From a virus, in the UHGV virus genome UHGV-0273766: 21,292 bases of DNA. One strand, written 5' to 3'. Below, piece by piece: positions 10,310 through 21,269 of the stretch (position 1 is its first letter; each line of letters begins with the position of its first letter). The translations under genes were made by a program, and so were the position numbers. Below the pieces are notes generated by a model that made no database searches, had not been told where the DNA came from, and worked only from the letters and a program-made list of their open reading frames with translations.

Positions 10310-10921
10310 TCAAAGAGAAAAGCTAAAGCCCAGAAGGGAAGCCAAAGAACTTGAGGATTGGTTAAACGTGCTGTGCAATGCGAAGGTCATTGGGAATGAC
10401 TTAAATTCAGTAACCTGATCTCGCGCATAGGTGACATCGCCGGTAGTGACCGGGAATACCGTCATCTCATTTTCCAGTTTGGTTAAGCCGGAAGACAGCA
10501 ACCGATAAATACGCACATTGAGCAAATATTTAGACGGTATATTCCCGGTACCGTCCGGATTGATTACCCGACTTTTTGCCGTCTTAAACCAGTCCAAAAC
10601 GAGGCCATCAACGGTATCCCTGACCATCATTGTTATCTGCCCTGGCGAACGCTCCGTTGGTTGAAGGATATTCCCTCCGCCGATTTTAATCGTTTCATAT
10701 TCGATGCTGTAATCGTGGTAGGTAATATCTTTGGCAAAGAAGTCTGCCCCCTCCAGTCCATCAACTTCGACAGAGAACTGCCATCCTTGCGCGAACAGCA
10801 TTTTGTTCATGATGATTGACGTCAGCTTACCAACTTCCCGTTCACCAACGCCGGAGCCAAATAATGTCGTCGTTAATGCCGAAGATACATAAGACTTTAC
10901 TGAAGCAACATTAAACCCCAT
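10310..10921 (-). CDS. Hypothetical protein (203 aa), probable tail morphogenesis or structural protein
   Basis: Complete ORF with GAGAGG-type Shine-Dalgarno; tightly packed in the minus-strand operon. Confidence 0.55.
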   Translation of the reverse strand: MGFNVASVKSYVSSALTTTLFGSGVGEREVGKLTSIIMNKMLFAQGWQFSVEVDGLEGADFFAKDITYHDYSIEYETIKIGGGNILQPTERSPGQITMMVRDTVDGLVLDWFKTAKSRVINPDGTGNIPSKYLLNVRIYRLLSSGLTKLENEMTVFPVTTGDVTYARDQVTEFKSFPMTFALHSTFNQSSSSLASLLGFSFSL

Positions 10922-10931
10922 ATCAGCCCTC

Positions 10932-11522
<591 letters not shown>

Positions 11523-11556
11523 TTAACCGATTCTACGAGTAGTCATTTGTGACAGG

Positions 11557-12033
11557 TCATTTTGCGCGCTTCAGGCAGCCATCTTCAGGTGCCGCGTTGA
11601 AAAGCTCTGCGGCCTTACGTAGCGTAAATGTTGCGATTTTTTTTCCGTCTACGTATGCATCGAATGTTTTAACTTCCATATCAGGGGTATCTGACCAAAA
11701 ACCATACCAGTAACTATCACCCACAGAGGAACCGATAGAACTGATAGGATATTCATCATCACCAACTTTCAGCGTTATTTGTTCTTTTTTAGCATCAAAT
11801 GACTCACCGCCAGGTTCTGTTTTCATGAGAGTGAGTAGTCGTGTTCCTACTTGATTGGGATCCGTATTATTAAATCCAACATCGCACTCAAATGTAAGCG
11901 TATAATTATCTTTGCTGGAAACAGCATAAGAACGAACACCATGAGTCTCGCCGGTTGACCATTTGCTTACATTTGCCATTGATGAAAATGGAGTAAGCAA
12001 AGCAAGAATTAGAAAAAATCGTTTGATGCGCAT
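11557..12033 (-). CDS. Secreted or periplasmic small protein (158 aa) with N-terminal signal peptide; AT-rich gene
   Basis: N-terminus MRIKRFFLILALLTPFSSMA is a classical Sec signal peptide; gene and flanking intergenic regions look AT-rich by eye (not computed); two Cys in the mature part. Confidence 0.6.
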   Translation of the reverse strand: MRIKRFFLILALLTPFSSMANVSKWSTGETHGVRSYAVSSKDNYTLTFECDVGFNNTDPNQVGTRLLTLMKTEPGGESFDAKKEQITLKVGDDEYPISSIGSSVGDSYWYGFWSDTPDMEVKTFDAYVDGKKIATFTLRKAAELFNAAPEDGCLKRAK

Positions 12034-12094
12034 TAATTTATCTCCTTTGGATATTAACGATTATCAATATTTTAATTGGTTATCCATAATATAT

Positions 12095-12742
12095 TTACCA
12101 TTCATAGGGTAAATTAAGCGCTTTTAAACCTTGCTGGAAGGTATTAAGTGAACCGTTCTTTTGTTGTTCCATTTGTTCGCGTGCCGCTTTCTCATACTGC
12201 TCCATCCGTTGGTTATACTCTTGCAATTCCTCTGGTGAGAGGTTTCCCATTGGGGAGTTTGTACCCGGCCCCCTGGCCCGCTCTTCAAGTGTACCCTGCA
12301 CGTTTTGATGGCGCATTCCTGGGGCATTTCTGATTGAGTCAATGCCATTTCTTCCAACGTCTTCTTTATTAACGGCATTGCTCGCCACCAGCACACCCCA
12401 GCTAGGAATAGCAAAATCAGGAGCGGTTTCGCATGCCTTTACCATATAATCGAAAGTGCTTCGATTGATCTCATTTGCATCGGGGTTTAATAGGCGAGAA
12501 TATTGGTATTTAGCATTTGCGTTGGTTGAGACTTTATACAGTTCCTGCTGCACCATCGCTTCAGAAAGTTTAAGGCGCTTCATATCTGACAGTAACTTCT
12601 TGCGCATGGATTCGTCTTCACTGACAGCAAATCCGTAAACGTGCCCAAGGTATTTCGTATAATCGGTACAAATCTCCTTTACGCTTGATGCTGCATTAAC
12701 AGTCCCAGCCATAAATAATAACGGTAGTAATAGTTTTCTCAT
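12095..12742 (-). CDS. Secreted protein (215 aa from the second ATG), candidate superinfection-exclusion (P1 Sim-like) protein
   Basis: Signal peptide MRKLLLPLLFMAGTVNA with GGTGAGG Shine-Dalgarno upstream of the internal ATG (the ORF track starts 9 codons earlier at 12769). C-terminal segment NAPGMRHQNVQGTLEERARGPGT is shared with the Sit-like protein. Confidence 0.6.
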   Translation of the reverse strand: MRKLLLPLLFMAGTVNAASSVKEICTDYTKYLGHVYGFAVSEDESMRKKLLSDMKRLKLSEAMVQQELYKVSTNANAKYQYSRLLNPDANEINRSTFDYMVKACETAPDFAIPSWGVLVASNAVNKEDVGRNGIDSIRNAPGMRHQNVQGTLEERARGPGTNSPMGNLSPEELQEYNQRMEQYEKAAREQMEQQKNGSLNTFQQGLKALNLPYEW

Positions 12743-12838
12743 TATAACCTCACCTGCCTTATAACTCATTTAGGGTACATATTTTCGCCTTTAAAAAAAA
12801 GAGGTTATTAGATCCAATTGTGCATTTATTAAACAAAC

Positions 12839-12855
12839 AATGCTCTAATAAATTT
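12839..12855 (+). promoter_or_regulatory. P1-type C1 repressor operator (Op51-like)
   Basis: AATGCTCTAATAAATTT matches 16 of 17 positions of the P1 C1 operator consensus ATTGCTCTAATAAATTT (recalled from the literature). Confidence 0.6.
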
Positions 12856-13019
12856 GTATTTTTAAGTCACGAATGCTATCTTTTCGCATCATATTGACCT
12901 TTTAATCGTTCAGGCTTATAGTTCCGCCGTCGTAGCAAATTCTGCGACCGGGTTTAGCAGCCTGAATGTTAGTGCGGACAACCGCAGATATCCGATATTG
13001 CGGTATTTTTGTGTCCGTA

Positions 13020-13110
13020 AAACCGCGTTACGCCCAAATTATGGTGGGGCGTGATGGGGAGGCTTCGGCCTGCTGGTTTCACTAACGCCAGTCTGCTAAC
13101 CCCGTCACGT
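13020..13110 (+). ncRNA. Putative c4-like antisense repressor RNA region (boundaries approximate)
   Basis: Between the operator and the icd-like ORF. Elements CACTAAC (13080-13086) and CTGCTAA (13093-13099) are complementary to GTTAGTG (13152-13158, overlapping the Shine-Dalgarno of the icd-like ORF) and TTAGCAG (13123-13129). Contains a GGC-TTCG-GCC hairpin. Confidence 0.35.
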
Positions 13111-13169
13111 CCTGCCACCTGTTTAGCAGCGGGTAGCAGGTTGTTAAACCTGTTAGTGAGGCCGTAACT

Positions 13170-13391
13170 ATGGTTAATGCCAATCCTTGCGCACGCCAAG
13201 AATTCATCTGGCGTTTCTATTCCTGTAAAAAACACCACTATCACTTCGTTATCGCAGCAACAGAAGACGAAGCACGCTCTCAATTGCCTGATGGCCCCTG
13301 CATTTTTACTGCCCGTTTTTCAACTAACTCGCGCAATTCACTTAGTTACTGGAGCCTCCCCTTCTCTGCCGACGTTCAGGGGGGTTTATGA
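13170..13391 (+). CDS. icd: Icd-like small protein (73 aa), translationally coupled to the antirepressor
   Basis: GAGG about 8 nt upstream of the ATG; its stop overlaps the antirepressor ATG (ATGA). Size and position match P1 icd as I recall it. Confidence 0.45.
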   Translation: MVNANPCARQEFIWRFYSCKKHHYHFVIAATEDEARSQLPDGPCIFTARFSTNSRNSLSYWSLPFSADVQGGL

Positions 13392-14422
13392 AAACACCTC
13401 TCGTCACCCGTAATGAAATAGCCGAAGCGATCGCCTTGCATACAATCTGTATGCCGACACGGGAGATCCCCGGCGCAATTGCCAACTATTTCATGATAAC
13501 CAGGCGTTTTTATACCCGAACAGATAAGGCTGTGATCAACAGGCTACTGATAGCCGAGATCAGGGATTATTTGATTGAACAAGGACGTCTACGTTACGCA
13601 ACAGTGGCAGCAGAAATGAGAAAGGAGGCACATAGAATGACCGGTAATAATTTAAATGTTGAAAAACCAGCACCTGTTGCTTCAGCTACGCCAGCACCAG
13701 CCCTGAATGTCATCCCCAACACCGGAGACACAATCGACAGCCAAACATTGTTGAAGATGGTCAATGAGGCACGGAAATTATGTAGCGAAAAACCAGTTCG
13801 CAACAATGATTTCATTGCCAGAGTTAAGGATGAGCTTGAAGGAGAAACCTACGAAATTTTCGTAGGTCAAAAAAACGGCGCAGAAATAGATATTATAACC
13901 ATGACCTACAAACAAGCCCTGCGAGTTGCCGCGCGCGAGTCAAAAGCGGTCCGCCGTTCGCTGATCGACAAACTGGAAGAATTACAGCAGGCAAACTCCC
14001 CTACCCCATCGATCCCCCAAACATTACCAGAAGCCCTACGCCTGGCTGCCGAGTTGGCAGAACAGAAAATGCATCTGGAACAACAGCTGGTGGCCGCAGC
14101 ACCTAAAGTCGATTTTGCCGACCGGGTATCAGTGGCTAATGGAATCCTGATCGGTAACTTTGCAAAGGTCGTTGGACTTAAGCAAAACGCCCTTTTCTCA
14201 TGGTTGCGCCAGAACGGCATTCTCATGGCTTTTGGTGCGCGCAAAAACGTACCGCGCCAGCAGTACATTAACGCCGGGTATTTCACGGTGAAAGAAGTGG
14301 TGCTGGATGATGAAAATGGCTATCAGATACGGCTGACGCCACAATTAACGGGTAAAGGCCAGCAGTGGTTAACTCGCAAGCTACTTGATGCTGGTTTGTT
14401 AAAACCAGTAGCAATAGGTTAA
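13388..14422 (+). CDS. ant: Phage antirepressor with C-terminal KilAC/ANT domain (344 aa)
   Basis: C-terminal LPEALRLAAELAEQK...APKVDFADRV...ILIGNFAKVVG...QQYINAGYFTVKE...TGKGQQWLTRKLLDAG matches the KilA-C/ANT family by eye; G-rich Shine-Dalgarno; followed by a terminator. Confidence 0.75.
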   Translation: MKTPLVTRNEIAEAIALHTICMPTREIPGAIANYFMITRRFYTRTDKAVINRLLIAEIRDYLIEQGRLRYATVAAEMRKEAHRMTGNNLNVEKPAPVASATPAPALNVIPNTGDTIDSQTLLKMVNEARKLCSEKPVRNNDFIARVKDELEGETYEIFVGQKNGAEIDIITMTYKQALRVAARESKAVRRSLIDKLEELQQANSPTPSIPQTLPEALRLAAELAEQKMHLEQQLVAAAPKVDFADRVSVANGILIGNFAKVVGLKQNALFSWLRQNGILMAFGARKNVPRQQYINAGYFTVKEVVLDDENGYQIRLTPQLTGKGQQWLTRKLLDAGLLKPVAIG

Positions 14423-14435
14423 CAAAAGAAAAAAA

Positions 14436-14460
14436 CCTGCCAGCAAACTGGCAGGTTTCT
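14436..14460 (+). terminator. Rho-independent terminator after the antirepressor gene
   Basis: Stem CCTGCCAG / CTGGCAGG (8 bp), loop CAAA, then TTTCT. Confidence 0.7.
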
Positions 14461-14500
14461 GAGCAGATCGTCCAACCCGATCTGGATCGGGTCAGAAAAA

Positions 14501-14517
14501 TTTGCTCTAATAAATTT
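14501..14517 (+). promoter_or_regulatory. P1-type C1 repressor operator (Op53-like) upstream of the kilA-repL-like operon
   Basis: TTTGCTCTAATAAATTT matches 16 of 17 positions of ATTGCTCTAATAAATTT. Flanked by inverted repeats at 14476-14491 (CCCGATC-TG-GATCGGG) and 14536-14559 (AATCACCA-N8-TGGTGATT). Confidence 0.6.
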
Positions 14518-14586
14518 CGTTTTCTAAGTGCAAAGAATCACCATTTCGAGCTGGTGATTGAAGGTTGATGCAAATTTGGAGAAAAA

Positions 14587-15387
14587 ATGCAACAAACATT
14601 CAATGCGGATATGAATATATCAAACCTTCATCAAAATGTCGATCCTTCAACCACTCTGCCCGTTATTTGTGGTGTTGAAATTACGACCGACCGCGCTGGC
14701 CGTTACAACCTTAATGCTCTACACAGAGCGAGCGGACTCGGTGCCCATAAAGCGCCAGCTCAATGGCTAAGAACGCTGTCAGCCAAACAGCTCATCGAAG
14801 AGCTTGAAAAAGAAACTATGCAGAATTGCATAGTTTCGTTCGAAGGCCGTGGCGGCGGCACTTTTGCCCATGAATTGCTCGCAGTGGAGTACGCAGGCTG
14901 GATTTCTCCCGCGTTTCGGCTGAAGGTAAACCAGACATTTATCGACTATCGAGCCGGAAGATTACAACCTGCTATTCCGAAGAGCCTCCCAGAAGCTCTC
15001 CGTTTGGCTGCTGACCTGGCAGAGCAAAAGCAACGGCTGGAGCAAAAAATGCTGATGGATGCACCTAAAGTCGAATTCGCCGAACGCGTTGCTACCGCCA
15101 GCGGGGTTCTAATCGGCAACTATGCCAAAGTGCTCGGCTTGGGCCAAAACTATCTCTTCACCTGGTTGCGTGATAACGGAATTCTGATCGCAACCGGTGA
15201 ACGCAGGAACGTCCCCAAACAAGAATACATATCCCGTGGGTATTTCACCCTTAAAGAAACCGTGATCGATACAAGCAATGGAAGCAGGATTTCTTTCACG
15301 ACTCGTATAACCGGCAAAGGTCAGCAGTGGCTGATGAAGCGATTGCTTGATGCTGGTGTGCTGGTACCTGTCGCGGCAACGCGCTAA
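14587..15387 (+). CDS. kilA: KilA-N plus KilAC domain protein (266 aa), KilA/antirepressor-like
   Basis: N-terminal KilA-N-like signature (NLNALHRASGLG...GTFAHELLAVEYAGWISPAF); C-terminal half is paralogous to the C-terminus of the upstream antirepressor. Confidence 0.7.
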   Translation: MQQTFNADMNISNLHQNVDPSTTLPVICGVEITTDRAGRYNLNALHRASGLGAHKAPAQWLRTLSAKQLIEELEKETMQNCIVSFEGRGGGTFAHELLAVEYAGWISPAFRLKVNQTFIDYRAGRLQPAIPKSLPEALRLAADLAEQKQRLEQKMLMDAPKVEFAERVATASGVLIGNYAKVLGLGQNYLFTWLRDNGILIATGERRNVPKQEYISRGYFTLKETVIDTSNGSRISFTTRITGKGQQWLMKRLLDAGVLVPVAATR

Positions 15388-15416
15388 CAGACGTAGTAAG
15401 AACCACCAGCATTGTA

Positions 15417-16262
15417 ATGCTGGCTAAAGTCACTTTCCTGAGCTGTATAACGATGAGCGATTTTACTTTTTCTGGCTATGAATTGGCCTTCTTTGTAACA
15501 CACTCCGGTCTATCCCGTAGCGCCGGGCATATCCTGTCGCAATGTGCAAATCTCGCGGCAACAACCAGTGAATACTTCATTCACAAGCCCCACCGCCTGA
15601 TCGCGGCAGAAACTGGTTATAGCCAATCAACCGTCGTTCGTGCATTCCGTGAAGCTGTAAACAAAGGAATTCTATCTGTAGAGATTGTTATCGGCGATCA
15701 CCGTGAACGTCGCGCTAACCTGTACCGGTTTACACCATCCTTTTTGGCCTTCGCACAACAAGCCAAAAATGCGCTGATTGAAAGCAAATTAAAAATCTCT
15801 TCAGCGGCAACCAAGGTTAAAGCTGTTCTCGCTAAGACATTGGCTTTATTTAATTTTTTATCCACACCCCCATGTCAAAATGATACCCCCTCCCCATGTC
15901 AGGATGACGTGGCAATAAAGAATAAGAAGTCACAAGTTAAAAAAACAAAAAGATCAGTTTCCGGCGGTGCCGGAACGATCAGACTCAAAAAATTGACTTC
16001 ATGGATCGCTGAGACAAAAGCAAAGGCTGACAATCTGCGGTTATCCAAAAAACGCGCACAAAAACATGAGTTCAAGCAGAAAGTAGAGGCGGCAGCGCGG
16101 AAATATGCTTACCTGAAGAACAAGCGTTCTCCTGATATTGGCGGGGTATCAAACTTCGATAATCTGCCGCATTGCATGACGGTAAACGAAGCTCTTAATG
16201 CGGTTTTAGCCAAAAATAAAGATAACGAACAATGGGGTATACCGGCAGGATTCAGAGGGTGA
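15417..16262 (+). CDS. repL: RepL-like lytic replication protein candidate (281 aa) with N-terminal HTH-like segment
   Basis: Follows the kilA-like gene as in the P1 kilA-repL operon; HTH-like segment (LIAAETGYSQSTVVRAFREAVNKGIL); Lys-rich C-terminal half; matches my recollection of RepL size. Start codon uncertain (alternative ATG at 15453). Confidence 0.45.
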   Translation: MLAKVTFLSCITMSDFTFSGYELAFFVTHSGLSRSAGHILSQCANLAATTSEYFIHKPHRLIAAETGYSQSTVVRAFREAVNKGILSVEIVIGDHRERRANLYRFTPSFLAFAQQAKNALIESKLKISSAATKVKAVLAKTLALFNFLSTPPCQNDTPSPCQDDVAIKNKKSQVKKTKRSVSGGAGTIRLKKLTSWIAETKAKADNLRLSKKRAQKHEFKQKVEAAARKYAYLKNKRSPDIGGVSNFDNLPHCMTVNEALNAVLAKNKDNEQWGIPAGFRG

Positions 16263-16312
16263 TAGATTGCTCTAATCTGGAGTTACCTGGCGTTTTCAGT
16301 TTGAGGTCGGAG

Positions 16313-16558
16313 ATGCAATCTGATTTTTTACAGTTAGCGATCGCTTTTGCAGGATATGTTTGTATTGGCTTCTGTGTATACATGATCAGCCGAAAAATGC
16401 TTGTCGATATCGACCGCAAAGAACAAGCAGAGGAGATCTTAGTATGGATTTTCTTTGGCGCGGTCTGGCCATTAGGGATCATGTTTGCTGCAACATTTCT
16501 TCTGATGTGGATATTCACCCTTCCAGGTGATTTCTATAGAAAAAAAGCCAGACATTGA
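16313..16558 (+). CDS. Small membrane protein, two predicted transmembrane helices (81 aa from ATG 16313; the ORF track extends to 16232)
   Basis: Hydrophobic stretches LAIAFAGYVCIGFCVYMI and ILVWIFFGAVWPLGIMFAATFLLMWIF; GGAG just upstream of the ATG. Confidence 0.45.
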   Translation: MQSDFLQLAIAFAGYVCIGFCVYMISRKMLVDIDRKEQAEEILVWIFFGAVWPLGIMFAATFLLMWIFTLPGDFYRKKARH

Positions 16559-16738
16559 TACAATCGTTGCGGGTGCTTGAGGCTATCTGCTTCAGGTATT
16601 ACCCGAAAAGCAGATAGAAGAAAGCCCCAGATAACATTACGCGTCCTGCAAGACGCTTAACATTAATCTGAGGCTCAATCTATGAACGGCAAATCTAGGT
16701 TAGCCTCTTACGTGCCGAAAGGCAAGGAGAAGCAGGCT

Positions 16739-16894
16739 ATGAAGCAGCAAAAGGCGATGTTAATCGCCCTGATCGTCATCTGTTTAACCGTCATAGTGAC
16801 GGCACTGGTAACGAGGAAAGACCTCTGCGAGTTACGAATCCGAACCGGCCAGACGGAGGTCGCTGTCTTCACAGTTTACGAACCTGAGGAGTAA
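16739..16894 (+). CDS. hok: Hok/Gef family type I toxin (51 aa), HokD/RelF-like
   Basis: MKQQKAMLIALIVICLTVIVTALVTRKDLCELRIRTGQTEVAVFTVYEPEE is a canonical Hok/Gef sequence; AAGGAGA Shine-Dalgarno; in-frame upstream extension from 16682 (Mok-like leader); GC-rich hairpin at 16903-16924 downstream. Confidence 0.85.
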   Translation: MKQQKAMLIALIVICLTVIVTALVTRKDLCELRIRTGQTEVAVFTVYEPEE

Positions 16895-16932
16895 GAGACC
16901 CGGCGAGGGAGAAATCCCTCGCCACCTCTGAT

Positions 16933-17340
16933 GTGTCAGGCATCCTCAACGCACCCGCACGTAACCCGCTTCGGCGGGTTTTGTTTTTTCCTGGCATTCT
17001 GGTTTACAATTCGCACGCCAGCCTGAACAACTGGCACCTGCTGCGCCAGCAGAGACAACCGATGGCGCACGATACCAAATTACACAATTCTGATGATTCT
17101 GCCGTCTTTGCCAGCAGGCACGGGCGGCGTTCCCGCACTTTCAAATCTGACTGGTTCCAGCATCCCCCATGCACTGAAGAACAGGCCGAGTGGCTAATTC
17201 AGTGCTACCGCAGACACGGATACGAGATTAAGAAAGCCCTCAGCCTCGATTATCGTCACTGGATAATCTCCGTCAGGCTTCCTTACTCCGAACGATCACC
17301 GCGTCCGTCCCGCACATTCCAGCAACGCATCTGGAGGTAA
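16933..17340 (+). CDS. Hypothetical protein (up to 135 aa; start uncertain, possibly the internal ATG at 17062)
   Basis: ORF between hok and the DUF968 gene, in the position occupied by rem in the Qin prophage; no recognisable motif. Confidence 0.35.
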   Translation: MSGILNAPARNPLRRVLFFPGILVYNSHASLNNWHLLRQQRQPMAHDTKLHNSDDSAVFASRHGRRSRTFKSDWFQHPPCTEEQAEWLIQCYRRHGYEIKKALSLDYRHWIISVRLPYSERSPRPSRTFQQRIWR

Positions 17341-17341
17341 C

Positions 17342-18388
17342 GTGCGAGTATTACTTCGACCTGTTCTGGTACCGGAACTCGGGCTGGTGATCGTTAAGCC
17401 GGGCCGTGAATCCATGCCGGTATTCCACAATACCCGGGTACTGGTGGAGCCGGAACCGAAAAGCATGCGTAATCTGCCGTCCGGGGGCGTTCCTGCCGTT
17501 CGCCAGCCGCTGGTGGAAGACAAAACATTGCTGCCGTTTTTCAGTAACGCACGGGTGATTCGTGCTGCTGGTGGTGCTGGTGCATTGTCTGACTGGCTGT
17601 TGCGCCATATTAAATCCTGCCAGTGGCCACACGGCGATTATCATCACAGCGAAACCGTCATTCACCGTTATGGTACCGGCGCAATGGTGTTGTGCTGGCA
17701 CTGCGACAACCAGTTGCGTGACCAGACCTCCGAATCACTTGAGCAACTTGCTCACCAAAACTTGTCAGCATGGATGATTGACGTCATTCGTCACGCAATG
17801 AATGGCACACAGGAGCGGGAATTATCGCTGGCTGAATTATCTTGGTGGGCAACCATAAATAACGTAGCGGACGCACTACCGGAGACGGTATTACGTCGTT
17901 CGCTGGGATTGCGCGCGGAAAAAATTAGCTCAGTATACCGCGAGAGCGACATCGTGCCGGGAGAGCAGAGTGCCACCAGCATGCTGAAGCAGCGCACAAA
18001 AAATATTGCGCCGCTGCTTCACGCCCACCAGCAAAACCCGCCACAGGAAAAGACGGTGGTCAGCATTGCCGTTGAGCCGGAGTCTCCGGAATCTTTCATG
18101 AAACGACCTAAACGTCGCCGCTGGCTTAACGAGAAATACACGCGCTGGGTTAAGACACAGCCGTGTGCATGTTGTGGAAAGCCTGCTGATGATCCCCACC
18201 ACTTGATAGGCCACGGTCAGGGTGGAATGGGTACTAAAGCGCATGACCTCTTTGTGTTGCCTTTGTGCAGAAAACATCACGACGAGCTGCATGCGGATAC
18301 CGTGGCATTTGAAGAGAAGTATGGCTCCCAGCTGGAGCTGATATTTCGTTTTATCGATCGTGCGCTGGCAATAGGCGTGCTGGCCTGA
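17342..18388 (+). CDS. DUF968-family protein (YdfU-like) with C-terminal Cys/His HNH-like motif (348 aa; GTG start, uncertain)
   Basis: C-terminal CACCGK...DDPHHL...GGMGTKAHDLFVLPLCRKHHDELH is characteristic of DUF968 proteins found in lambdoid nin regions; order hok, small ORF, DUF968, Q mirrors the Qin prophage. Confidence 0.7.
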   Translation: MRVLLRPVLVPELGLVIVKPGRESMPVFHNTRVLVEPEPKSMRNLPSGGVPAVRQPLVEDKTLLPFFSNARVIRAAGGAGALSDWLLRHIKSCQWPHGDYHHSETVIHRYGTGAMVLCWHCDNQLRDQTSESLEQLAHQNLSAWMIDVIRHAMNGTQERELSLAELSWWATINNVADALPETVLRRSLGLRAEKISSVYRESDIVPGEQSATSMLKQRTKNIAPLLHAHQQNPPQEKTVVSIAVEPESPESFMKRPKRRRWLNEKYTRWVKTQPCACCGKPADDPHHLIGHGQGGMGTKAHDLFVLPLCRKHHDELHADTVAFEEKYGSQLELIFRFIDRALAIGVLA

Positions 18389-18405
18389 TTTTGTGGAGAA
18401 AGTTG

Positions 18406-18777
18406 ATGCGTGATATTCAAATGGTTCTTGAACGTTGGGGGGCATGGGTGGCAAATAATCACGAGGATGTGGAATGGTCATCTGTTGCTGCAGGTTTTAA
18501 GGGATTAATTCCTTCGAAAGTAAAATCCCGCCCGCAATGTAGCGATGACGATGGCCTGATCATTAGCTCTGCGATGACAGTTCTTAAGAAAAAGGAACCG
18601 TATCAATACGAATTACTGGAAATGTATTATGTGTATGGGGTTACATTACGGGTGTTGGGGGTAAAACTGGGGATATCACTTAATCAGGTTGTTATCAGAC
18701 TGCAGAAAGCTGAAGGGTTTATTGACGGTTGTCTGGCAATGTTGGGGGTATCTTTAGAAATTGATTGTTACATATAG
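18406..18777 (+). CDS. Antitermination protein Q-like (phage 82-type Q family, 123 aa)
   Basis: N-terminus MRDIQMVLERWGAWVANNHEDVEWSS matches my recollection of short Q proteins annotated in E. coli prophages; GGAG about 7 nt upstream; followed by an AT-rich intergenic region as expected for a late promoter and qut site. Confidence 0.65.
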   Translation: MRDIQMVLERWGAWVANNHEDVEWSSVAAGFKGLIPSKVKSRPQCSDDDGLIISSAMTVLKKKEPYQYELLEMYYVYGVTLRVLGVKLGISLNQVVIRLQKAEGFIDGCLAMLGVSLEIDCYI

Positions 18778-18852
18778 TAATAAATTCAATCAAAGTAAAT
18801 AATCATATTTTATTATAACCTCCTGATGATACCTGTTCATTGGGAGGTTATT

Positions 18853-19470
18853 ATGGATAAAAATGTAGAGCATGTATTAGTTGATGCAATTGAAAATAAG
18901 CAATCTTTAACAGTCGTTTACTTAGGAGGGAGCCAGCCCGGAACATTAAGGAATATTTCTCCGATTAGTATAAATGGGGATAAATTGCGGGCAAGATGCC
19001 ATAGTTCTGGAGCAGTAAAGGTTTTCAATCTTGGGAAAATACAGTTACCCAGTGACTCCTGCGCGGTATCTATGCACTATGGAGATTTAGAAGTTAAAGC
19101 TTATGAGACGATGCAGAGCGTAAATGACAACTTTCATGCCCTTTATCCTGAAGGACGATGGGGTGTTGATTTTAATGAGCATCGCTTTGCTTTATTTGAT
19201 TTTTTTAAAAACGGGAAACGAAAAAAAACGGCATTTATGGCAATTGAGTTCAGGGAAAGAGATGAAGAGAAAATAATAACAGGTGTAACAATTGATATTG
19301 GTATATCTGGAACAGTGATTTCTGAGAAGTCCCGAATCCCAAAAAGACGACCATGGGTAGTGGTTGGTCCCGAACACGGAGAATACAGTACTTATTCAAC
19401 TTTGGACAAGGCTGCTACAGCGTTTTTTGAGAGGCTTTCGTTGATAGCATCCGGCCTGGAAGATAATTGA
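18853..19470 (+). CDS. Hypothetical protein (205 aa), AT-rich moron immediately downstream of Q; possible WYL-like N-terminal domain
   Basis: GGGAGG Shine-Dalgarno 5 nt before the ATG; AT-rich by eye; N-terminal pattern VVYLGG...R.ISPISI....LRARCH.....KVFNLGKI resembles WYL/Sm-like folds; followed by a rho-independent terminator. Confidence 0.6.
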   Translation: MDKNVEHVLVDAIENKQSLTVVYLGGSQPGTLRNISPISINGDKLRARCHSSGAVKVFNLGKIQLPSDSCAVSMHYGDLEVKAYETMQSVNDNFHALYPEGRWGVDFNEHRFALFDFFKNGKRKKTAFMAIEFRERDEEKIITGVTIDIGISGTVISEKSRIPKRRPWVVVGPEHGEYSTYSTLDKAATAFFERLSLIASGLEDN

Positions 19471-19600
19471 TTTTATGTTTGGTATTCAGAGTTCGCCGTG
19501 CTTAAGAAAGTCAAGATTCTAAAAATACTGAATGAGCTACTTGTGTTATAACAAAAATGCTATTAGTGTGTTAAGAGTGGTTACTTCGCCACACAACTTA

Positions 19601-19626
19601 AACCCGCCACTGAGCGGGTTTTTTGT
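19601..19626 (+). terminator. Rho-independent terminator downstream of the moron
   Basis: Stem AACCCGC / GCGGGTT (7 bp), loop CACTGA, followed by a T-run. Confidence 0.75.
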
Positions 19627-19746
19627 ACCTGTAAACTTGGTGCAGTACAGTAAACACGCTGGTGGTCGTGAATACTGACTTTTTATCTTGCTGGCTTTTT
19701 AGACAAGAGTTATTGGTATGTCATGTTAACCAGAAGGGAAAAAGAC

Positions 19747-19944
19747 ATGCTAAAACAGCAAGATATGACCGAAACCGCCAGAGTGGTGTTTAATGAATTG
19801 AGCGTCACCGAACCGGCGACAGTCGGGGAGATTGCGCAGAATACTTACCTTTCACGCGAACGCTGCCAGTTAATACTGACCCAGCTGGTTATGGCGGGTC
19901 TGGCAGACTATCAGTTCGGTTGTTACAGACGCCTTCCGCAGTGA
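19747..19944 (+). CDS. Small hypothetical protein (65 aa), possible winged-helix DNA-binding protein
   Basis: AAGGGA about 9 nt upstream of the second ATG; TVGEIAQNTYLSRERCQLILTQLVMAGLA resembles a recognition helix / wing; a terminator hairpin overlaps its stop codon. Confidence 0.4.
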   Translation: MLKQQDMTETARVVFNELSVTEPATVGEIAQNTYLSRERCQLILTQLVMAGLADYQFGCYRRLPQ

Positions 19945-19957
19945 AGGCTTTTTTATT
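19931..19957 (+). terminator. Rho-independent terminator overlapping the stop of the small ORF
   Basis: Stem GCCTTC / GAAGGC, loop CGCAGT, followed by TTTTTTATTT. Confidence 0.65.
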
Positions 19958-20094
19958 TGTGGTAAATGGGCGGCTGGTGGGTGTTAGGGGCACCCACCAG
20001 CCATCTGCTCATGCGTTGGGTTCACAAGCAAACCTCAGGCCCACTGCTTTGCGCAAAAGCAGAATGAGCCTATCAGAGACAGGCTTAATGATCC

Positions 20095-21144
20095 ATGCTT
20101 AATACTGTAAAAATATCCAGTTGTGAGTTAATCAACGCCGACTGCCTGGAATTTATCCGGTCGTTACCCGAAAATTCTGTTGACCTGATAGTCACGGACC
20201 CGCCGTACTTTAAAGTGAAGCCTGAGGGCTGGGATAACCAGTGGAAGGGCGACGATGATTACCTGAAGTGGCTGGACCAGTGTCTGGCGCAGTTCTGGCG
20301 GGTGCTGAAACCTGCCGGAAGTCTTTACCTGTTCTGTGGTCATCGCCTGGCATCTGATATCGAAATCATGATGCGTGAACGCTTCAGTGTGCTGAACCAT
20401 ATTATCTGGGCGAAGCCGTCCGGACGCTGGAACGGATGCAACAAGGAAAGCCTGCGGGCGTATTTCCCCGCCACAGAGCGCATTCTGTTCGCGGAACATT
20501 ATCAGGGGCCGTATCGTCCGAAAGATGCCGGGTATGCGGCGAAGGGCAGTGCACTGAAACAGCATGTGATGGCCCCGCTGATTTCTTACTTTCGTGATGC
20601 GCGCGCGGCCCTGGGGATAACGGCAAAACAGATTGCAGATGCCACAGGAAAGAAAAACATGGTGTCGCACTGGTTCAGTGCCAGTCAGTGGCAGCTACCG
20701 AACGAAAGCGATTATCTGAAATTACAGTCGCTGTTTGCCCGGGTGGCAGAAGAGAAACATCAGCGCGGTGAACTGGAAAAGCCCCACCACCAGCTGGTGG
20801 ATACGTATACGTCACTGAACCGGCAGTATGTGGAGCTGCAGAGTGAATATAAGCATCTGCGGCGGTATTTTGGTGTGACGGCGCAGGTGCCGTACACGGA
20901 TGTGTGGACACATAAACCGGTGCAGTTCTATCCCGGGAAACATCCGTGCGAAAAACCGGCAGAAATGCTGCAGCAGATAATCAGCGCAAGCAGTCGTCCG
21001 GGTGACCTGGTTGCAGATTTTTTTATGGGCTCAGGTTCAACGGTAAAAGCGGCACTGGCGCTCGGGCGTCGTGCGATTGGCGTTGAGCTGGAGACCGGAC
21101 GTTTTGAGCAGACAGTCAGGGAAGTTCAGGATTTAATCGTTTGA
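20095..21144 (+). CDS. Orphan DNA methyltransferase, beta-class amino-methyltransferase (N6-adenine or N4-cytosine), 349 aa
   Basis: Motif IV TDPPY near the N-terminus and motif I FFMGSGST near the C-terminus (beta-class order); no restriction endonuclease gene adjacent. Confidence 0.85.
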   Translation: MLNTVKISSCELINADCLEFIRSLPENSVDLIVTDPPYFKVKPEGWDNQWKGDDDYLKWLDQCLAQFWRVLKPAGSLYLFCGHRLASDIEIMMRERFSVLNHIIWAKPSGRWNGCNKESLRAYFPATERILFAEHYQGPYRPKDAGYAAKGSALKQHVMAPLISYFRDARAALGITAKQIADATGKKNMVSHWFSASQWQLPNESDYLKLQSLFARVAEEKHQRGELEKPHHQLVDTYTSLNRQYVELQSEYKHLRRYFGVTAQVPYTDVWTHKPVQFYPGKHPCEKPAEMLQQIISASSRPGDLVADFFMGSGSTVKAALALGRRAIGVELETGRFEQTVREVQDLIV

Positions 21145-21193: not shown

Positions 21194-21269
21194 GGCCCTT
21201 TAGCTCAGTGGTGAGAGCGAGCGACTCATAATCGCCAGGTCGCTGGTTCAAATCCAGCAAGGGCCACCA
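21194..21269 (+). tRNA. tRNA with anticodon CAT, tRNA-Ile2-like (lysidine type) or tRNA-Met; CCA encoded
   Basis: 7-bp acceptor stem GGCCCTT/AAGGGCC, D-arm AGCTCAGTGG, anticodon loop CTCATAA, T-arm GGTTCAAATCC, discriminator A plus CCA. Closely resembles E. coli ileX/ileY-type tRNA from memory. Confidence 0.85.

Follow-up and report, generated by a model that had tools for sequence, protein, structure and literature searches.

C proteins such as C.PvuII and C.AhdI are Xre-type helix-turn-helix dimers that have C-boxes 5′ of their own gene and gate the endonuclease. The RNase III hairpins of T7 and lambda (e.g., R1.1) are irregular intergenic hairpins of about 20 bp with an asymmetric internal loop, found in polycistronic phage messages. 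Both are points of comparison for the DNA studied here, the 21,292 nucleotides (nt) of virus genome UHGV-0273766 (the window; coordinates count from its first letter), in which a gene for a winged-helix protein of 65 amino acids, a structured spacer and an orphan DNA methyltransferase of the M.EcoGII type follow one another. M.EcoGII is encoded by a prophage and methylates adenine in any sequence context (PMC5778455). Like M.EcoGI it is silent in the lysogen and deleterious under constitutive expression, and about its regulation in nature there is so far only conjecture, namely that it is “switched on when the prophage excises” (PMC5778455). Shiga toxin (Stx) phages produce the StxS RNA, which is 258 nt long and processed to 74 nt (PMC7547250). 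Lambdoid phages without a Rec module are enriched in Chi sites at their right end, in the active orientation (Zheng et al. 2025, PMC12315714).

Comparing the locus with its relatives, we consider it reasonably probable that it is a cassette gated by the late antiterminator Q, and that the RNA leader of the cassette limits or conditions the translation or processing of the methyltransferase. Under this model, a constitutive promoter PR′ would give rise to a short RNA that stops at the terminator tR′ (T1), and RNA polymerase would need modification by the Q protein to read through T1. The first product of read-through would be a portable cassette consisting of the winged-helix gene, the RNA spacer of about 140 nt and the methyltransferase. 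In E. coli-type cassettes, T2 may act as a second terminator in front of the spacer. Rather than insulating a mini-gene, the two terminators would then keep a constitutively toxic methyltransferase silent in the lysogen. Within the spacer, helix P2 is predicted to pair the bases immediately 5′ of an AUG that lacks a Shine–Dalgarno sequence, and P2 and P3 could occlude the start region of the methyltransferase. The leader would thus permit only low or conditional translation, a second, post-transcriptional lock that tunes late expression. P1 may be a processing or 3′-stabilizing hairpin of the upstream message, similar to an RNase III site. The elements of the model are the following:

19541-19569, plus strand: putative late promoter PR′ (−35 TTGTGT at 19541-19546, −10 TAGTGT at 19564-19569)
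19600-19626, plus strand: terminator T1, the putative tR′ (8-bp GC-rich stem AAACCCGC/GCGGGTTT at 19600-19607/19614-19621, T-run to 19626)
19747-19944, plus strand: winged-helix gene, 65 amino acids (ATG at 19747, stop at 19944; phrog_331, E = 1e-37)
19931-19958, plus strand: terminator-like hairpin T2 (stem GCCTTC/GAAGGC at 19931-19948, then TTTTTTATTT), overlapping the stop codon of the small gene
19958-20097, plus strand: structured RNA spacer of about 140 nt (cmsearch with a covariance model built here, full length, 144.5 bits, E = 2e-31)
19966-20012, plus strand: hairpin P1 of about 20 bp (basal 6-bp stem AUGGGC/GCUCAU, 4-nt internal loop on the 3′ side, upper stem of 12–14 bp)
20019-20094, plus strand: closing helix P2 (GGUUCA-AAG at 20019-20028 with CUU-UGAUCC at 20084-20094), enclosing P3
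20037-20071, plus strand: irregular hairpin P3 (apex 20044-20062)
20095-21144, plus strand: beta-class N6-adenine DNA methyltransferase of the M.EcoGII family, 349 amino acids (PF01555, E = 2e-44)

The methyltransferase is identical to M.EcoGII at 331 of 350 positions (95%), with M.EcoGII taken as printed in Supplementary Table S1 of PMC11551740; this reference was read by machine from a PDF, and a few residues may be character recognition errors. Enzymes of this type have an N-terminal DPPY, a central target-recognition domain with a helix-turn-helix and a C-terminal FxGxG; the window enzyme carries DPPY at residues 35-38 and, close to its C-terminus, FMGSGS. No Shine–Dalgarno sequence precedes the AUG at 20095, and no restriction endonuclease gene was found in any context examined. 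Homologues in Shiga toxin-producing E. coli O111 have no detectable methylation motif. The silence of the methyltransferase in the lysogen would follow from its location behind tR′ in a Q-dependent operon. The M.EcoGII literature that we examined (including PMC5778455) is silent on the gene upstream, on both terminators and on the structure of the spacer.

That the spacer is structured as RNA is well supported by the way it varies. Across 43 distinct sequences, 93.2% of the cells in the proposed helices are paired, compared with 30–42% when the partners are slid by one to three columns. Changes on both sides occur in 14 of 37 pairs, which one in 500 shuffles equals, and the covariation score of 0.263 (shuffles: 0.159) is reached by none of 500. 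An earlier count with 36 sequences agrees (across both counts, 93–94% paired against 29–43% when slid, and 0–1 of 500 shuffles). G–U cells outnumber A–C cells (105 vs. 32), and in 21 of 27 versions the plus strand gives the better fold of the two strands; both point to an RNA of late-transcript sense. In the window, 19945-20094 folds at −61.6 kcal/mol (shuffles: −47.4 ± 3.9; z = −3.7), and across genera the spacer is more conserved than either flanking gene. Matches to the covariance model lie on the plus strand only, with one copy per locus, and there are none in 575 kb of unrelated DNA used as a specificity control. A viral DNA-pattern scan set to a gap of about 49 recovered Proteus-type copies of the spacer. 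Judging from these comparisons, both inverted repeats of the spacer are parts of a single plus-strand RNA structure. A structured RNA was one of two alternatives offered by the first-pass annotation, which was made from the window alone, and the covariation in homologous loci supports it.

The perfect 12-bp stem which that annotation had placed at 19972-20002 lies exactly there. Its arms GGCTGGTGGGTG and CACCCACCAGCC (19972-19983 and 19991-20002) are part of the upper stem of P1, and none of 200 shuffles folds as well (−29.9 kcal/mol, z = −4.8). The architecture of P1 is kept in all 27 distinct versions, with compensatory changes in seven of the nine pairs of the upper stem. Arms may even be replaced wholesale with compensation (GACUGUAAAAGUG/CACCUUUACAGUC, GACCGUAAAGGUG/CACCCUUACGGUC, GGCCAG/CUGGCC, GACAGUGAGGAUG/CAUCCCCACUGUC, CAAAGG/CCUUUG). 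P1 is followed by AUCUGCUCAUG and not by a run of U, which sets it apart from an intrinsic terminator. The inner three pairs of P2 all change in a compensatory manner (AAG/CUU to GGA/UCC), and its 3′ strand ends one base 5′ of the methyltransferase AUG. A second inverted repeat had also been described; it exists, with 7 bp and a 5-nt loop, but its position was off by one base, as it occupies 20044-20062, where it forms the apex of P3 (CTGCTTT/AAAGCAG at 20044-20050/20056-20062). A P3 base pair changes on both sides from G–C to A–U in 14 of the 43 sequences. The hairpins proposed in the first-pass annotation would have lost their standing had related phages lacked them, and they are conserved there. 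Since T1, the gene, T2 and the repeats are all kept in related loci, their presence is more than chance.

Known RNA families do not account for the spacer. Between 19500 and 20150 no family of Rfam 15 reaches its gathering threshold, including S-adenosylmethionine (SAM) and S-adenosylhomocysteine (SAH) riboswitches, phage small RNAs and ribozymes, and in a scan of 4227 families at E ≤ 10 the spacer matches none. The best sub-threshold hits are bare hairpins and were rejected (P26 with 24 bits; STnc130 with 30 bits against a threshold of 55); the STnc130 hit lies on the minus strand and amounts to little more than the tR′ hairpin in reverse. A literature search on the hairpin sequence returned no relevant paper. 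We also rejected a peptide of 33 amino acids that would start at ATG 19966 in the spacer: its frame is not conserved and in Klebsiella meets a stop after seven codons.

The region from 19541 to 21144 is the start of a lambdoid late operon, with Q upstream, a terminator between the putative promoter and the late genes, and, in related loci, lysis genes downstream. Two further elements frame the cassette:

18391-18777, plus strand: late antiterminator gene Q (PF06530 Phage_antitermQ, E = 1.5e-47; phrog_79)
21194-21269, plus strand: tRNA with anticodon CAT, the next element of the late operon (of ileZ type in Stx phages)

An arrangement in which Q and a terminator precede the small gene and the methyltransferase, with tRNAs and stx or lysis genes behind them, is shared with phiP27, SfV, Stx2_EH1846, Klebsiella prophages, mEp460 and one E. 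coli prophage, and the Q types differ among them. The cassette precedes ileZ-argO-stx2e in phiP27 and S-R-Rz in SfV, where the site homologous to T1 is annotated as “terminator.” The E. coli prophage matches 19552-20150 at 100% and has no stx genes after its tRNAs. In Stx2_EH1846, a Stx2a-converting phage, the Q stop codon lies only about 40 nt upstream of the shared block. Phages with the same Q type are homologous from 19552/19553 onward, and the left homology edge to other phages shifts with the Q type (19552/3, 19569-71, 19601-3, 19614, among others). From these Q-type-dependent edges, together with the Q-stop distance in Stx2_EH1846, we infer a location of about 19541-19575 for PR′ and the Q-utilization site, and we take the first terminator to be tR′; the genes downstream would then depend on Q. 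By our reading of the alignment, a TAnnnT hexamer stands at a constant distance before the conserved GTTAAGAGTGG in seven loci with a PF06530-type Q. Between the putative −35 and −10 (19541-19556) there is a short dyad, TGTTATAACA in the window, and homologous positions (L083, L088, L091, L100, L111, L119) hold other sequences, including GCGGTCCGC, CGCGTACGC and TCGTTACGA, at the same place. The dyad could be a Q-binding element that co-varies with the Q allele.

T1 and T2 fit the two terminators that had been proposed on either side of the small gene; T1 ends one base before 19627, where the annotated region began. T1 folds at −12 kcal/mol (z = −3.2) and has the stem and T-run of an intrinsic terminator. 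Most related loci have a GC hairpin with a T-run 5′ of the small gene, regardless of Q family, and the cassette stands directly behind tR′ across Enterobacterales. T2 likewise has the form of an intrinsic terminator; its folding energy (−8.9 kcal/mol, z = −1.8) is by itself a modest gain over shuffles. Across genera its stem is kept through compensatory changes (GCCTTC/GAAGGC, CCTCCCT/AGGGAGG, CTCCGC/GCGGAG), the U-tract varies, and Proteus and Providencia versions lack the hairpin. A promoter scan of 19627-19746 and the spacer found no sigma-70 promoter for either the small gene or the methyltransferase. Hence the description of the small gene as a terminator-insulated mini-gene is not supported in that form: T1 is apparently the tR′ of the late operon, T2 is dispensed with in Proteus and Providencia, and the sigma-70 site is missing.

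The small gene and the methyltransferase are tightly linked, which bears out part of the first-pass interpretation: among 26 loci taken from species-representative genomes, 24 carry the methyltransferase behind the small gene. Two of the 24 are partial (one at a contig end, one without the N-terminus of the methyltransferase); of the other two loci, one is on a contig that stops short of the site and one has lost the methyltransferase. Spacer length is 142–154 nt in 22 of 23 measured loci. Three types of antiterminator precede the cassette in the 26 loci, and a fourth (PF03589) does so in more distant ones. All or part of a 599-bp query over the cassette head is matched in 2991 of 5426 complete E. 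coli genomes, in up to 8 copies per genome. The mEp460 allele of the small gene is divergent (about 53% identical past the N-terminus), and mEp460 retains the spacer (145 bits) and the methyltransferase. Where the methyltransferase has been lost, the small gene, T2 and P1 persist, the break falls at 19984-20018, and P2 and P3 are gone; such variants are L013, with an AraC-like replacement, phiSTEC1575-Stx2k and PhiR5_1. This mosaic break after P1, together with a divergent lineage (L114-L116) in which a plain Shine–Dalgarno sequence goes with the absence of P2 and P3, suggests that P1 serves the upstream gene and that P2 and P3 serve the methyltransferase. The replacement in L013 (3270-4048), found also in phage hits H24 and H25, is an AraC-family regulator-like gene with its own promoter-like sequence right after P1.

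A number of observations weigh against our model. The most divergent lineage of the small gene (L114-L116; 42% identity, behind a PF03589 antiterminator) has a spacer of only 72 nt (3196-3268), in which a single terminator-like hairpin with the octamer GCTGGTGG in its 5′ arm is followed by a normal Shine–Dalgarno sequence. This spacer has no match to the RNA model over P1–P3; without P2 and P3 in this lineage, the leader is evidently not essential to the methyltransferase. Covariation was scored on an alignment fitted to a covariance model that already held part of the structure. A few deep clades (E. coli-like vs. Proteus-like) supply much of the covariation, so that there are fewer independent events than cells. 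P2a is mostly invariant or changed on one side, with little two-sided change. The left arm of P1 is near-invariant in Enterobacteriaceae, whereas the right arm has about nine variants; a pure RNA-helix model does not predict such a difference, and the invariant arm hints at a further constraint that acts on the DNA or the G-rich strand (through Chi or a bound protein). The PR′ candidate TTGTGT-17-TAGTGT is a weak match to consensus and absent from the output of the promoter scan.

The small gene itself is genuine, as first annotated, and strongly conserved. A Shine–Dalgarno sequence (AAGGGA, 19734-19739) lies 7 nt 5′ of its ATG. In 81 related loci, which were selected by protein identity (a caveat on the following count), 37 DNA versions encode essentially one protein, with 35 synonymous variant sites and one non-synonymous. 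Its family is a narrow one, with 61 clusters at 50% identity that all belong to Enterobacterales. AlphaFold2 predicts a minimal winged helix (predicted local distance difference test 93), a single domain without flanking or dimerization helices, and by residue count the protein is slightly acidic (net charge about −1). A Pfam search gave no hit above cut-off, the best being TrmB with 17.6 bits against 25.6; MarR also stays below, and there is no hit to an HTH_3/Xre domain. NCBIfam has no match. Compared with a MarR/TrmB-type regulator, the predicted fold agrees, but the family threshold is not reached and the dimerization helices are absent. The leader in front of the gene, and the P1 arms farther downstream, contain the following features:

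19658-19665, plus strand: Chi octamer GCTGGTGG in the leader, retained in some relatives and mutated in others
19687-19723, plus strand: conserved leader block CTTGCTG-N13-CAGAGTTAYYKGTRTGTCA, kept from E. coli to Plesiomonas
19973-19980, plus strand, and 19994-20001, minus strand: Chi octamer GCTGGTGG in the P1 arms

Within the leader, GTATGTC (19716-19722) is complementary to GACATGC around the start codon (19744-19750), and CUUGCUG to codons 4–6. In the region 19687-19764, 91% of cells are paired (24–46% when slid), and compensatory changes are absent. The complementarity is suggestive, and we do not claim a leader structure for the small gene. A compact palindrome resembling a C-box was not found in the leader; a repeat search gave only two imperfect long-loop inverted repeats that start there, 79% and 89% complementary.

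One could argue that the winged-helix protein controls the methyltransferase, and the first-pass annotation had proposed just such a controller-like regulator. In its narrow form this idea finds no support: the protein lies outside the C-protein family, as it is not of Xre type and has no endonuclease partner in the contexts examined, and the repeats vary like an RNA helix and not like a symmetric operator. In a broader form, the protein would bind the spacer repeats, or the block upstream of its own gene, as DNA and set methyltransferase transcription. The strict linkage of the two genes across genera, a fold as in MarR, ArsR and IclR repressors and the conserved block 5′ of the small gene all speak for this. 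We nevertheless find it rather unlikely for a single domain of 65 amino acids that lacks dimerization helices, is slightly acidic and scores below threshold for TrmB and MarR. Neither spacer nor leader has a sigma-70 promoter, the repeats are imperfect as DNA and vary by G–U-compatible changes and bulges, and the small gene survives replacement of the methyltransferase. Some regulatory link between the two may exist, and candidate roles for the small protein are binding of the spacer as RNA or DNA, or partnership with the methyltransferase. Less credible still is that the small gene is an autonomous moron expressed in the lysogen, or the spacer an independent small RNA; we regard this as very improbable. 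A terminator does follow the gene in E. coli-type versions, the sequence 5′ of the gene is conserved, and the varied cargo between Q and PR′ implies a neighborhood that tolerates insertions. However, neither the stretch from T1 to the gene nor the spacer gave a promoter-like site in the scan, and in our reading of the alignment the conserved hexamer at the −10 position ends in G in all genera. T2 is missing in Proteus-type versions, and the spacer runs continuously into the methyltransferase AUG.

The hairpin might also be primarily a DNA element, a Chi hotspot in a conserved linker that protects phage DNA, whether replicating or packaged, from RecBCD and promotes module exchange. The window contains 12 Chi sites (six per strand, 12385-20800) where 0.66 are expected, and related loci of 8 kb show a ratio of about 4:1 in favor of Chi on the late-sense strand, as in the phages of PMC12315714. 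The plus-strand Chi in the near-invariant left arm of P1 is unchanged in almost all Enterobacteriaceae versions, in contrast to the variable right arm, where the minus-strand Chi is confined to the window-type subgroup; both strands carry Chi in the window because its 12-bp repeat is perfect. Mosaic breakpoints (19984, 20018) fall in or just past the hairpin. As the main explanation we still think this improbable. Compensatory changes keep the hairpin where Chi is lost (in most Proteus-type versions, in Providencia, and in L119, L341 and L345), so Chi is not the reason for the structure. Conservation also extends beyond the octamer into the basal stem, P2 and P3, and Chi does not need an inverted repeat. 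Taken together, these points make Chi an overlay on the structure. On the left arm of P1, the RNA constraint is probably supplemented by Chi or some other strand-specific one, and the plus-strand Chi is likely a secondary, DNA-level feature that fits the Chi-rich right ends of lambdoid phages. A bolder proposal would go beyond the Q-gated cassette and make the spacer a new trans-responsive riboregulator, sensing a protein (e.g., the winged-helix protein on P1) or SAM/SAH, and doubling as a Chi in active orientation. We consider this unlikely. If true, a toxic, non-specific methyltransferase would be translated only at the right lytic moment, and one sequence would serve twice, as RNA in gene control and as DNA in recombination or protection.

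Nine of the 12 Chi sites lie in the 3.3-kb lambdoid part of the window, with close pairs at 17509/17567 (plus) and 17973/18025 (minus). In the methyltransferase gene, the codons for HHQLV contain the palindrome CCACCAGCTGGTGG (20787-20800), which gives each strand a Chi. Of 20 distinct loci with this peptide, 15 have the plus-strand Chi and 12 have both, which suggests that codon choice at HHQLV favors Chi.

The surroundings of the cassette are mosaic. An open reading frame of 205/214 amino acids between Q and the putative PR′ (18826-19470; phrog_8498, weak WYL-domain match) occupies an interval that holds a GIY-YIG nuclease gene in phiP27 and nothing in Stx2_EH1846; it appears to be a cargo slot whose contents differ between phages. 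Downstream, ARAGORN calls the CAT-anticodon tRNA “Met,” whereas it is tRNA-Ile (ileZ) in phiP27, RefSeq and the identical E. coli prophage; two tRNA-Arg genes follow it in phiP27 and the RefSeq annotation. Farther upstream, 9000-16957 is about 97% identical to P1-like phage-plasmids (sit, pmgB, tub, pmgC, c4/icd/ant, hok/sok), and homology to lambdoid prophages (hokD-ydfU/DUF968-Q) begins at about 16559; the overlap, 16559-16957, is the hok/sok locus common to both. Rfam matches above threshold are C4 antisense RNA with its a1/b1 targets (12916-13122, P1-type immI) and the sok antitoxin RNA (16571-16744). No record in three collections spans the joint of the P1-like and lambdoid parts, so the window may be a genuine recombinant or else a chimera produced by assembly.

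Our results bear on the question of how a non-specific, toxic methyltransferase is kept safe. They would place M.EcoGII, a widely used enzyme, as the first cargo of a Q-dependent late operon, behind two candidate control elements that are new to the catalogues and literature searched, the winged-helix protein and the covarying RNA leader. Many Stx2 phages (phiP27, Stx2a and Stx2d phages, 1720a-02) have the cassette downstream of the late promoter and ahead of the toxin genes. T2 and the RNA structure would therefore be transcribed together with Shiga toxin and could influence its basal expression.

How does this locus compare with the systems it resembles? The methyltransferase shares with M.EcoGII and M.EcoGI its length of 349 amino acids, 95% identity, the beta-class motif order, a prophage location and the orphan state; the publication on M.EcoGII describes the enzyme and not its genomic control region (PMC5778455). 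The start of the operon resembles PR′-6S RNA-tR′ of lambda and PR′-StxS-tR′ of Stx phages in having Q, a terminated short transcript and Q-dependent late genes (tRNAs, stx, lysis; PMC7547250). It differs in that cargo reading frames lie between Q and a PR′ that is putative; the predicted terminated RNA measures only about 50 nt, and its sequence is not similar to that of the 933W/Sakai region. The dense late-end Chi sites are like those of Chi-rich lambdoid phages, where most sites have the orientation active for RecBCD entering from cos (PMC12315714), but in the window the orientations are 6 to 6, one Chi sits in a conserved RNA hairpin, and part of the window is P1-like. With C proteins the locus has in common a small protein of DNA-binding fold encoded right 5′ of a modification gene, with inverted repeats nearby; here, however, the protein is a winged helix, an endonuclease is lacking, and the repeats lie 3′ of the gene and behave as RNA helices. 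The spacer falls outside all 4227 Rfam families, yet it is similar to cis-regulatory leaders (riboswitches, protein-binding leaders, RNA thermometers) in being a 5′ leader of several helices with invariant unpaired nucleotides and a predicted occlusion of the start region. The geometry of P1 (6 bp, 4-nt loop, 14 bp) is like that of an RNase III site, which spans about two turns of double-stranded helix and often has an internal loop; this is an analogy only, as sequence similarity is lacking. P1 also stays with the upstream gene in mosaics, as expected of a 3′-stabilizing hairpin.

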